Below, in pieces: positions 8,411-57,258 of a stretch of DNA of 64,000 nt (its first letter is position 1; every line of letters begins with the position of its first letter). The DNA comes from Eledone cirrhosa (Eukaryota): positions 8,804,001 through 8,868,000 of the forward strand of contig OZ024754.1 of NCBI GenBank assembly GCA_964016885.1. The letters run 5' to 3'. The notes beneath the pieces were generated by a model, which saw nothing but the letters and a program-made list of their open reading frames with translations, searched no databases and was not told where the DNA came from. Both the position numbers and the translations under genes were made by a program.

Positions 8411-8616
8411 ACGGAGGAAATGTGGTAAGGAACCAGGTGGACCATAACGCACCAAAGTACTCAATACTTAGGGTAGTAGAGTGGGTAATAGGAACGAGTA
8501 GGACCCGACGGCTGAGCTCAAGCCGTTTCGACGGCTAATTCTGGACGGCTAATTCAGTCCAGAATTAGCCGTCGAAACGGCTTGAGCTCAGCTGTCGGGG
8601 GTCCTACTCGTTCCTA
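8411..8616 (-). mobile_element. Fold-back element family A, copy 1 (palindrome centred on a hammerhead stem II)
   Basis: Arms of about 58 bp at 8489-8546 and 8557-8616, plus a single-copy tail of about 80 bp. Flanked by (TA)n on both sides. Confidence 0.75.
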
Positions 8617-9397
8617 TATATATATATATATATATATATACCCCGGGGTAGTTTCAGGTGGTTTTGTATCAATAGTATTAATAAAAATAGATAATTATTC
8701 CTGAAACTTATTGAACACAAGTATTTTTTCACAATTCCCAATAAAAGTTTAAGTCTAAAGACTGTCTTGAGGCCAGAGGTTCATCAGTCTGGTGCTTAAC
8801 TTGGTTTCTGTGGCATTAAGTGACTGAGAGTACAAGACTTCCCCCTGGACAGGACACCAGTCCATCACAGAAATAAACTCCCAGCTATAGCTGGTACCCA
8901 TTTTCAGATGAGTATACTGGAGCAATGTGAAATAAAAAGTTTTGCTCAAGAACACAACACACAGCCCAGTTCAGGAATTAAACCCACGACATTATGATCA
9001 TACATCCAACACCCTTACCACTAAGCCATGCTACAAAGCCTGGGGTAAACTTAAAAGCGAACCTCCCCCACCCCCCAATCCTTAGCATCAACTGAATGAA
9101 TAGCTTCTAAATATCCTTCCCCGTGCACCTCTGTTAATCATGATAATAAATAAAAGGCTTTGTTATCAGAGAACCAGGTACGGTTGCAGTTGATTTGGTA
9201 TACTAACCTTATCTATCAAAGGGGGAAAGTCTGCCTGAAGCCCCCCACCCCCATCAACATAATCTCCCCCAAAATACTTTGTTATTCCATCTACCAACAT
9301 TGCCCTTATCAGTTTAATTATGAAAGCCAGAAAGCCAACATAGAATGGTTGTATCATCCACTGTAATCACAAATTGTCTGCCAAACTTACACCCCCT

Positions 9398-9764
9398 CTG
9401 TGTGTGTGTGTGTGTGTGTGTGTGTGTGTGTGTGTGTGTGTGTGTGTGTGTGTGTGTGTGTGTGTGTGTGTGTGTGTGTGTGTGTGTGTGTGTGTGTGTG
9501 TGTGTGTGTGTGTGTGTGTGTGTGTGTGTGTGTGTGTGTGTGTGTGTGTGTGTGTGTGTGTGTGTGTGTGTGTGTGTGTGTGTGTGTGTGTGTGTGTGTG
9601 TGTGTGTGTGTGTGTGTGTGTGTGTGTGTGTGTGTGTGTGTGTGTGTGTGTGTGTGTGTGTGTGTGTGTGTGTGTGTGTGTGTGTGTGTGTGTGTGTGTG
9701 TGTGTGTGTGTGTGTGTGTGTGTGTGTGTGTGTGTGTGTGTGTGTGTGTGTGTGTGTGTGTGTG
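9398..9764. repeat. Perfect (TG)n tract
   Basis: Direct inspection. Confidence 0.98.
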
Positions 9765-9964
9765 TATATCTATATATATATATATGCTACTGCAATGCGT
9801 TTGTACTTTGAGCTTGAAATTTGAAATTTAATAAACCCAAACAGATAATAAGACCTATATATGTAGAGATAGAATAATTTCAAATAAAAATAACTGACAT
9901 GAAAGACTTCAAATAGTATATATATATATATATATATATATATATATATATATATATATATATA

Positions 9965-10152
9965 TAGGAACGAGTAGGACCCCGACGGCTGAGCTCAAGC
10001 CGTATCGACAGCTAATTCCAGAATTAGCCGTCGAGACGGCTTGAGCTCAGCCGTCGGGGTCCTACTCATTCCTATTACCCACTCTACTACCCTAAGTATT
10101 GAGTACTTTGGTGCGTTATGGTCCACCTGGTTCCTTACCACATTTCCTTCGT
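9965..10152 (+). mobile_element. Fold-back element family A, copy 2
   Basis: Homologous to 8411-8616 in the opposite orientation, with a shortened loop and GAAA changed to GAGA. Flanked by (TA)n. Confidence 0.75.
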
Positions 10153-10266
10153 TATATATATATATATATATATATATATATATATATATATATATATAAA
10201 TGAAGTATTTCCGTCAGACAGGTACAGGAAAAAAGAGTGCTCTATGTAGGCTACAGAGCTTATTAC

Positions 10267-10391
10267 TTATGTAATAAACAACATAAGATAATTATTTCAT
10301 TTACCAGTGGTTTCTTGAAGGCAGATGTTATGTCTGTCTTCAAGAAACCACTGGTAAATGAAATAATTATCTTATGTTGTTTATTACATAA
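10267..10391. repeat. 125-bp near-perfect palindrome (fold-back family B)
   Basis: Arms of about 60 bp. GTTTC(10310)-stem-loop-GAAAC(10344)-CACTG-GTA corresponds to the 3' half of a hammerhead. Confidence 0.75.
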
Positions 10392-54803: not shown

Positions 54804-55186
54804 GGAGGTACATGGCTTAGTGGTTAGAGCATTGGCCTTGCAATCGAAAGGTTGTGAGTTCAATTCTCAGACAGAGTGATGTGTTGTTTCCTTGAGCAAG
54901 ACACTTTATTTCACATTGCTCCAGTTTACTCAGCTGTAGAAATGAGATGATAGGACAGGGGTCCCTATCATTCCACTGCAAAGTAGTCGTGGAGGTGCCA
55001 CGGCAAAAAAGGCACCCAGCCCATACTGTAAAGTGGACGTGTAGGCGCCACGGAAAAAAGGCACCCAGCACTCACTGTAAATGAGATTGGTGTTAGGAAG
55101 GGCATCCAGCTGTAGAAATCAAGCCAGAATCAGTTCCCGTCCCACCCTTGCAAGCAGGGAAAATGCGGACGTAAAATGATGATGAT
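54804..55186 (+). mobile_element. Full-length tRNA-derived SINE (family 2, CORE-like centre, RTE-like tail)
   Basis: A box TGGCTTAGTGG, B box GAGTTCAATTC, CCTTGAGCAAGACACTT core and (TGA)n tail. Relatives lie at 1508-1800(+), 8757-9030(-), 11505-11810(-), 15790-16105(-) and 20635-20925(-). Confidence 0.85.
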
Positions 55187-55719
55187 TTGTATGTATTTAT
55201 ATTTTTAATAACACTGATAAATATATATGGAAGGAACATATGTGATGATGACGATGATGATGGTAGTGATGATGGTAGTGATGATGATGAGACTGACGTT
55301 GCACGTACTGTCCCGATGAAGAGGAGACATTATCTGGAAGAAGTACATACTGTAGCTGCAACACAGCAGACTTTGTTTTAACCCTTCTTTCTGTCCAAAC
55401 CGGCTGTAACTGGCTGCTTATAGTGATGTTAAGGTATTGTTCTTAAAATAAATAATATCAAAATCTCATAGATTCAATATTATGAGAGATAAATCCTTTA
55501 CCATGAACATACAATAGTAAATATAGATTAATGTAAATGCTAAAGGGTTAAACATGGCGGAAAAGATTGTGATACAGCTGAGTTAGTTTCATCAAATACA
55601 AAGCCAAAGTCAGTCACATCAACACTCGCGACCACCACAAATAAAAGATTCAGGGTGGGACCATCACTGGTACCCACACAAATGTCATATCAGCATCCAC
55701 CATTGACACCCCAAATGTC

Positions 55720-56400
55720 ACACCAGTGCTACTACTAAATGTCAGAGGCCTGGTAAAACTGAGTAAGATCCCCTACCTAAGAGACCTATCCACAAGAAAT
55801 CAAGCAATATGCATGACACTAACTGAAACTCACTTGACAGCTGGCAGAGCAATTGCGGAAATACACATACCAAAGTATGTTGTATTTCGTACTGACAGGA
55901 GGGAGATAATTCATGGTGGAGTTGCTTTGTAAGTCTGTGAAGATGTCACATCATTAGTACTGTTGTCATATTCCAACTCGGTCTGTGACACACTAATAGT
56001 ACACGTAAAGCAACTCAAAATGGTAATATCTGTCACATATCGATTACCAGCTGCCCCCAGACATGAAGAAAAGTTTGAAGATAGCCCCAGAAGGATTGAA
56101 GAAGTGCTGGTCAATTTGGATCAGAGTCTCAATATTCTGCTGCTGGGAGATTTAACCCCTCCCCCCTCCCCCCAAATCAAATAACCCGAAGGCCTGCCCC
56201 TGAACAAAGGCAGACATAATCATTGTTAGACCTTACAAACAGACACTTCATGGAACAAATGGTACTTTATCCAACAAGGGGTGAAAATACCCTGGAGCTC
56301 TGCTTTACGAATAACATGGAGCTCACCCACAATGTGTAAGTGACACCAACGATTTTCTCGGACCAAGACATAGTAGAATTAGTAATGTATAGTCCGAGGA
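55720..56400 (+). pseudogene. Decayed LINE ORF2 apurinic-like endonuclease (CR1-group)
   Basis: LLLNVRGL...TETHL...FRTDR...GGVAL*V...ILLLGD...FMEQMVLYPTRGENTLELCFTNN, with stops and frameshifts. Confidence 0.8.
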
Positions 56401-56917
56401 GGACCTTAGATATATAGCCGAAAGGAAGGACTCAGTCTCCATCCAATTTAAAAGCTGGCCTTGTGCCTATTATAGAAATCATTTTGGCAGTATCGGTAGA
56501 GGGTCGGACGCCATGCTTTCTAGCATAGTTACGTCCCTTTACGGTCTGAGTTCAAATCCCGTCGAGGTTAACTTTGCCTTTCATCCTTACGGGGGTCGAT
56601 AAATAAAGTATCAGTAATACACTGGTAATTGCTGGCCTTGTGCCAAAAAGTAGAAACAATTATTATTATTATAAACCACTAAAATTTGTTTGTTATCTTA
56701 TTTCTATATATCTGAACATTTCCACCTTCTCTCATTTCTCCCCCCCCCCTCCTCTCTTCAATACCAGTAGAGAATAAAAAAGTGGTAAATTTAGCAATCT
56801 TTATAATCTCGAAATATCAAAGAATCAAATACATTTATACAAACATCTCTCTCTCTCTCTCTCTCTCTCTCTCTCTCTCTCTCTCTTTGTATGTATATAT
56901 ATACACATACATACATA

Positions 56918-57015
56918 CACGGTGTCCCCAAAAATGTATACACACTGATTACCTGTTCAGGCAATATTTATTAGAATGCTATTGAAGTGTGTATACATTT
57001 TGGGGGGACACCCTA
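56918..57015. mobile_element. Small Tc1/mariner-type MITE
   Basis: TIRs GGTGTCCCCAAAAATGTATACACACT / AGTGTGTATACATTTTGGGGGACACC. Partial copies lie at 11918-11975 and 25215-25310. Confidence 0.7.
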
Positions 57016-57049
57016 TATATATATATATATATATATATATATATATATA

Positions 57050-57258
57050 ACGAAGGAAATGTGATAAGGAACCAGATGGACCATAACGCACCAGAGTACT
57101 CAATACTTAGGGTAGTAGAGTGGGTAATAGGAAAATATTTAACGCCGACGGCAGAGCTCAAGCCGTTTCGACGGCTATTTCTGGACTAAATATGTAATCC
57201 AGAAATAGCCGTTGAAACGGCTTGAGCTCTGCCGTCGTCGGGGTTAAACATTTTCCTA
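57050..57258 (-). mobile_element. Fold-back element family A, copy 4 (diverged variant)
   Basis: Same tail and architecture. Copy-specific variants (GGCAGAGCTC, CTATTT) are mirrored on both arms. Confidence 0.7.

Follow-up and report, generated by a model that had tools for sequence, protein, structure and literature searches.

Palindromic insertions in the Eledone cirrhosa genome as probable twin-primed products of a Hydra-clade Penelope-like retroelement

A stretch of 64 kb of the Eledone cirrhosa genome (3.0 Gb), contig C14:8804001-8868000, referred to here as the window, contains four palindromes of one family (family A), each of which carries the 3' half of a hammerhead-shaped motif and a tail on one side only. 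The question that they raise is how an inverted structure of this kind is built with its centre inside a ribozyme. We propose, with a probability of about 0.68, that the palindromes are short insertions of a Penelope-like retroelement (PLE), in which two separately primed complementary DNAs (cDNAs) extend as far as the capped 5' terminus of their template RNA and are joined head to head. In family A the position +1 is the A of T(T/C)AGT(C/A)CAG (L063:4114, where L numbers denote sampled genomic loci).

The palindrome family and its parent element

Each window copy consists of a hairpin of about 50-60 bp and a one-sided tail of 80 nt; the short arm terminates at TTCC directly before TA in 4/4 copies, and (TA)n was found on both flanks of all four. 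The initial annotation had described four such palindromes, with short arms always stopping at TTCCTA before (TA)n and with loops differing between the copies, and all of this was confirmed, the positions agreeing within 2 nt. It had also regarded the substitutions mirrored on both arms as copy-specific; the mirroring is real, but the substitutions are subfamily markers which are present in long parents too. Genome-wide, a 30-nt tail word gave 19,949 exact matches, a 21-nt core word 55,036, and exact palindromes with a spacer of up to 60 nt were found 13,322 times. Since the tail and core words are so abundant while the reversed controls give 0 (as they do for the palindromes), the family is beyond chance. 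The short palindromes fall in at least five subfamilies, each matching long parents, and window copies 1 and 2 have the downstream marker of the C3 subfamily. Beside complete short palindromes the run of A/T only has a median length of 41 and 46 nt on the two sides (36 insertions); target-site duplications are hard to score inside (TA)n, and a non-simple repeat was common to 8/36 flank pairs, most clearly in L044. No long non-repetitive host open reading frame (ORF) was seen in the 64-kb window.

The route to the parent was given by three of the first 30 tail loci, which extended far upstream. In L063 an inverted tailed arm of 830 bp is followed by a forward partial tandem that includes the whole ORF and ends at TTCC before TA. 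This single ORF, with its ATG at +232, codes for 719 amino acids, reverse transcriptase (RT) first and a GIY-YIG domain following at the C-terminus, and has the motifs RWR (R for K), DKT, YRDD, CxCX5C (CNCPDRSIC), VIY..YIG and CxxC..E..N..CxH (CNLC..E..N..CKH). A Pfam search of the ORF gave no match; 2,054 homologues were counted among the 7,996 candidates scored, none with a family name, and its Atlas neighbours (0.96-0.99) are eukaryotic and carry HTH_animal, some also GIY-YIG or RVT_1. The Hydra clade, in which Hydra-1_Obim from Octopus bimaculoides appears, is defined by DKT, RWK, the CxCX5C linker, and a CxxC and a CxH flanking E and N (PMC8557442; this and the other papers cited by accession are drawn on in excerpt, and statements about them refer to those excerpts). 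Judged by its motifs, ORF layout and (TA)n target, the parent of the palindromes is a Hydra-clade PLE; the Neptune clade, first favoured, was dropped, as the motifs fit Hydra.

The earlier suggestion that the inserts are retrotransposition products was borne out. Furthermore, the layout of the insertion unit of endonuclease-bearing (EN+) PLEs, namely a partial tandem, an inverted 5'-truncated copy and a tail at one end, was recognized in L063, and in all 48 scored palindromes one arm is tailed and the other tailless. The overall structure is a known, published PLE insertion unit. Tandem units of 3,542-3,543 bp are present in the genome, and two four-unit head-to-tail arrays of the 3.5-kb element (C1:91476613-91487261 and C1:437200349-437210963) are candidate source loci.

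The sequence annotated as the 3' half of a hammerhead does belong to a hammerhead-shaped motif, and the parent copies with the intact motif, for which a genome-wide search had been suggested, were found, with the core UUGANAA rather than CUGANGA. The parent carries a predicted type I hammerhead composed of a CCCC/GGGG stem I, UUGANAA, a long stem II, GAAA, a stem III of 5-6 bp, and GUC before the cut with G after it; its self-cleavage is putative. This three-stem fold with a UH cut site appears in the minimum free energy structures of L063 and L065 and in the consensus fold of 19 copies, with modest z-scores of -0.36 and -2.25. No compensatory changes or covariation were seen in the motif among the 19 copies, Rfam gave no hammerhead match at the window copies or the parent, and a copy of the C3 subfamily folds differently from a type I hammerhead. 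The core is not the canonical one: A8 dominates (7,127 matches), G8 occurs in 37 matches, of which 11 are C3-G8 (CUGANGA), all four bases occur at position 7, and 24/100 parents, counted by eye, have C3-A8. Candidate CTGANGA parents (37 matches within 36 nt of the 3' half) were rejected, the 30 examined being junction fill or chimeras. The U3-A8 variant is known from PLE hammerheads (PMC4209133). Consequently the box half is missing from the palindromes as had been annotated, but the missing box is UUGANAA or CUGANAA, not CUGANGA. Similarly, the axis lies inside the stem II region, although not at loop II as such: within the long stem II/loop II region it occupies the 3' portion, and the 5' arm of stem II is not retained in the palindrome loop. 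The leader can also form a predicted competing hairpin with a CGAA loop (L063:4125-4140) that would hide the GAAA core, a possible switch between a leader fold and the ribozyme fold.

The 5' wall and the template RNA

The arms of family A share a 5' wall. Among 100 arms anchored on the core, 81 stop at -10..+11, two at -19 and -38, and 17 beyond -80; among 87 tail matches, 48 stop at -10..+12, 31 further 3', and eight were called long (two of these, L177 and L190, are misaligned). Compared with the 48/87 tailed arms at the wall, only 3/87 start at the predicted cut (+42/43). The 3' ends are fixed at two positions, +58 and +138; in the parent both precede a TAT, which can pair with nicked (TA)n. 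The microhomology with the TA target that had already been proposed was borne out, both insert ends sharing TAT with (TA)n. The depth of public contigs goes up about 10x at the wall in runs X1 and X4, with the same two 3' ends, runs X5 and X6 having been left out for their scant coverage; the kind of contig is unrecorded and the depth is uninformative on the start site.

In all 29 long arms there is a pyrimidine at -1 and an AT-rich box (TATTTAAA, TATTTATT or TATTCAWA) starting at -29..-31, TATT having been part of the search pattern. A TATA box and an initiator at such a spacing form an established promoter arrangement. The base before +1 is the parental T/C in 25,361 cases genome-wide, and a non-parental G in 6,390 or A in 1,068; the partner arm fails to explain the G in 20 of the first 30 cases. 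One base upstream of -1 the G:A ratio is 25:75 (first 100 of 1,973 matches, by eye), and a sample test of non-parental G:A gave 11:2 at -1 versus 2:7 one base upstream (p=0.007). Because non-parental G exceeds A at -1 yet the ratio reverses one base upstream, the wall is read as cap copying: it coincides with an initiator-like A that has a TATA-like box some 30 nt upstream, and the excess of G at -1 fits copying of an mRNA cap, of which untemplated G is an accepted sign (PMC9341517). PLE start sites lie in the pseudo-long terminal repeat (pLTR; PMC2377424, PMC8557442), and TATA and initiator were noted in one pLTR (PMC3846280). At the central junction of L001, L170 and C1:20838029 there are long A or T runs, which suggests untemplated addition to the cDNA end.

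Of 30 copies extending beyond the tail, 18 penetrate the ORF by at least about 1 kb, and 16/18 of these ORF-reaching arms (13/15 loci) extend upstream past -40, one stopping at +4 and one at +68. When the first 44 matches to the 5' half were grouped into 33 insertions, the partner arm was long in 16 and short in six, the other 11 being left without a call; a long partner was thus present in 16/22 resolved long-arm insertions, against about 19% expected under independence. Since ORF-reaching arms mostly pass the wall and the arm classes are coupled, the wall is a property of one kind of template RNA rather than a chance arrest at a fold. In a further family (family X) 13/30 arms end at TC before ATATG, L299 being counted as long after inspection by eye. 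The wall of family X is located 123 nt upstream from the CUGAAGA core, which also counters the annotated idea of an axis dictated by the fold. The base before the wall A in family X is G:A:T = 34:13:53 (first 100 of 785 matches, by eye), a weaker support for the cap reading.

These data bear directly on the strongest rival, according to which twin priming occurs on a longer RNA and both cDNAs stall at a structure, either stem II/loop II or a protein-bound site. We consider it unlikely: the wall does fall inside the predicted long stem II, and the blur from -6 to +7 would suit a pause zone, but such a stall does not agree with a G excess specific to -1, with the 16/18 ORF-reaching arms that pass the wall sequence, with the coupling of arm classes in place of independence, or with a family X wall far from its ribozyme.

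One cDNA or two

The initial annotation had suggested that a single cDNA, arrested at stem II, snaps back, primes its own copying and is attached to the TA target by microhomology, so that the ribozyme fold dictates the structure. Such a geometry needs a tailed arm at least a loop (at least 3 nt) longer than the tailless one, shared bases being credited to the tailed arm. The tailed arm was longer in 23/48 palindromes, the tailless in 16/48, and in 9/48 the two were equal; with the criterion applied, 21/48 fit, 18 lie within 2 nt, and in nine the tailless arm is longer by at least 3 nt (in two of them through point mutations), which leaves 27/48 without the geometry. The junctions are blunt or filled in 27 cases, have 1-2 nt of microhomology in 14 and 3-6 nt in seven, and the apex-type junction expected from snap-back at stem II was found in 0/48. 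Moreover, tailless arms can reach kilobases and contain ORF or untranslated-region sequence missing from the partner (L063, L264, L268, L276), that of L063 running past an internal TTCCTAT. Four loci (L002, L009, L015 and L018, around 1500) consist of a family X arm and a family A arm meeting at their walls, the family A arm being tailed and the family X arm tailless in three and tailed in one; these chimeras are rare, as a biased search found the four and there was none among 30 family X loci.

Self-copying by one cDNA does account for the +48..+55 marker being the same on both arms in 33/41 palindromes (31% expected at random), it also predicts the strict one-tail asymmetry, the TAT at +59 is the first one met in the copying direction, and an origin by self-priming had been put forward for the palindromes at Penelope junctions (PMC3846280). 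Nevertheless it is already contradicted for the long and chimeric inserts, and with the read-through of the ORF-reaching arms in addition we hold it to be quite improbable for the family. Two primings are the simpler reading because of the junction geometry, the long tailless arms, the chimeras and the finding that two internal RT starts bracket the tail, both target strands are extended and a dimer is predicted (PMC11167929).

It is still less probable that the short palindromes are a self-propagating non-autonomous element, similar to a short interspersed nuclear element (SINE), a retrozyme or a miniature inverted-repeat transposable element (MITE), copied whole from palindromic masters. The copy number is very high and a few junctions recur (one of them three times among 48), but most junctions differ, the subfamilies match long parents, the repeat is asymmetric with variable truncation, and the parent encodes RT, not transposase. 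The same features led us to reject a MITE or other DNA transposon, which would have terminal inverted repeats at both ends, a fixed length and a transposase parent. A non-LTR retrozyme, defined by tandem non-coding units with a whole hammerhead each (bioRxiv 2026.07.22.740005), was rejected as well, the short palindromes being inverted and having only the 3' half. The least probable alternative is that of putative half-ribozymes cleaved in trans by an intact partner: RNA from +1 corresponds, in formal terms, to the substrate strand in a split hammerhead of the I/II format, but its GAAA is predicted to lie in a competing hairpin, a read-through transcript would pair with its own inverted arm, and few tailed arms start at the predicted cut.

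For the preferred reading, two cDNAs joined at the cap, the following steps are proposed. The GIY-YIG endonuclease would cut both strands of the (TA)n target, and the two target 3' ends would prime by pairing with TAT, one of them at +58 and the second at +138, the RNAs used being mostly from one and the same subfamily. The template would start at the initiator inside hammerhead stem II, and for this reason the UUGANAA half would never be present. RT would run off at the cap, in many cases with the addition of C, which is seen as G, or of A-runs, and host end-joining would trim and then join the two cDNA ends. Long arms would come from a second template class without a 5' end at +1, which could be a circular or read-through RNA, as proposed in PMC4209133, or a template jump by way of the +1..+41 repeat expected to remain after ribozyme cleavage.

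The extension of the last possibility is more tentative. PLEs may copy their RNA in a retrovirus-like manner without a transfer RNA (tRNA): the promoter would lie inside the ribozyme, the leader would keep the disarmed half, and cutting of the 3' copy at +41 would create a 41-nt terminal repeat. In retroviruses, minus-strand strong-stop DNA is a short cDNA extending up to the capped 5' terminus of the RNA; likewise, target-primed strong-stop cDNAs of the PLE would run to the cap and would have to jump to the repeat in order to lengthen, the short insertions, tens of thousands in number, being twin strong-stops that failed to jump. If true, this would explain the regeneration of pLTRs and tandems. 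It is opposed by the G at -1 in 0/29 long arms and by the C3-A8 mismatch in 24/100 parents, and circular RNA explains multi-unit tandems equally.

Several points weigh against the joining of two cap-ended cDNAs. The wall is blurred, arms that start at +2..+7 or extend to -1..-6 being numerous, and trimming and A-addition are assumed as the cause; the partner arm could template the G in 10/30 cases; and the start site and the cap are read from DNA alone. In family X T is above G before the wall, and a TATA-like box was not seen there. The coupling estimate leaves out 11/33 long-arm insertions and would become 16/33 if all of these were long-short. The 21/48 palindromes mentioned fit snap-back geometry, arms of the same subfamily fit both models, and post-insertion deletion at the hairpin centre could reshape junctions. 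A circular or read-through template and a jump are not separable by these data as ways of passing +1. Finally, the arm samples are first matches on contig C1 to exact-match anchors, by which young copies are favoured.

Feature positions, related palindromes and known systems

Table 1. Palindromes of family A in the window and their parts
Feature	Position	Strand	Basis
Copy 1, whole	8411-8614		
Copy 1 tailed arm, +2 to +138	8411..8546	-	
Copy 1 junction filler, local duplicate of left-arm sequence	8547..8555	.	read from sequence
Copy 1 tailless arm, +1 to TTCC, then (TA)13	8556..8614	+	
Copy 2, whole	9967-10152		
Copy 2 tailless arm, +7 to TTCC; shares 2 nt with tailed arm	9967..10018	-	
Copy 2 tailed arm, +3 to +138	10017..10152	+	
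Copy 3, whole	50059-50255		
Copy 3 tailless arm, +2 to TTCC, then 2-nt filler	50059..50115	-	
Copy 3 tailed arm, +1 to +138; subfamily markers are those of the ORF-bearing parent L063	50118..50255	+	
Copy 4, whole	57050-57256		
Copy 4 tailed arm, -4 to tail end, then 6-nt filler	57050..57191	-	
Copy 4 tailless arm, +3 to TTCC; L075/L093 subfamily	57198..57256	+	

Palindromes of other families were also observed in the window (59402-59524, 35348-35584, 52822-52917 and 10263-10395), with the axis upstream of a CUGANGA core where this is visible and with sister copies in L044, L047, L155, L193, L201, L045, L188 and L137. The family represented at window 52939 is fused, within stem II of its ribozyme, to a family A arm in two loci (L010 and L025, near 1500), by template switch or nested insertion. 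An intact canonical type I hammerhead at 39599-39643 on the minus strand (Rfam RF00163, 31.7 bits, cut-off 34) sits in a 390-bp piece between (TA)n runs and is likely another PLE 3' end. The palindrome at 26137-26305, which has 76-bp arms and a box-B-like word, may be a SINE of tRNA origin that shares the head-to-head layout. At 61680-62252 and 62474-63076 there are pieces of a GIY-YIG-like frame and of a reverse transcriptase frame of a long interspersed nuclear element (LINE).

In the open-licence literature searched, no report of a cap-defined wall or of twin priming in PLEs was found beyond the papers cited, and within that literature the cap-like wall inside a ribozyme, the coupling of arm classes and the cross-family chimeras are new. 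The way in which PLEs build inverted repeats, tails and pLTRs is stated as open (PMC8557442, PMC2377424, PMC11167929). That question becomes directly testable through this family, in which upwards of 13,000 natural events are on record with exact coordinates; they show two sites of priming, a single 5' wall bearing a cap-like G, coupled arms and chimeras. The approach also offers a reading of PLE start sites from DNA alone.

The element resembles the C-terminal EN+ PLEs of the Hydra clade (PMC8557442) in DKT, the RWK-like motif, CxCX5C, CxxC and CxH, the single ORF, the (TA)n target and a hammerhead near the 3' end; it differs in a unit of about 3.54 kb, where the Hydra rule is under 3 kb, and in its UUGANAA core with long stems II and III, the Hydra rows examined in File S2 all having CTGANGA; the motif is also unlike that of Hydra-1_Obim. 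The U3-A8 hammerheads of the Schistosoma Cercyon PLEs (PMC4209133) show the same core covariation and closely spaced opposite-strand motifs, but they are minimal and without helix III, whereas here helix III has 5-6 bp and about a quarter of the copies combine C3 with A8. With the in vitro system of Poseidon_Ac (PMC11167929) the family has in common two RT starts that bracket the tail and an AT-rich target of which both strands are cut and extended; there the starts are inside the ORF, here upstream of the ATG, and the excerpts on that system deal neither with how junctions form nor with run-off at a cap. Twin priming of L1 (PMC11702581) likewise joins two primings by end-joining, but the L1 arms cover different parts of the RNA and here both cover the same leader. 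The short cDNA that reaches a likely capped 5' end is similar to retroviral strong-stop DNA, with the difference that no tRNA primer and no RNase H domain were noted here. Finally, the inverted-pLTR unit with a tail in EN+ PLEs (PMC8557442, PMC3846280) has the same head-to-head inverted 5'-truncated copy, the tail at one end and the junction palindrome; in our case the tail has 80 nt instead of 30-40, most insertions are stubs of about 190 bp with a fixed 5' wall, and, in contrast to the self-priming proposed in PMC3846280, the present data favour two primings.

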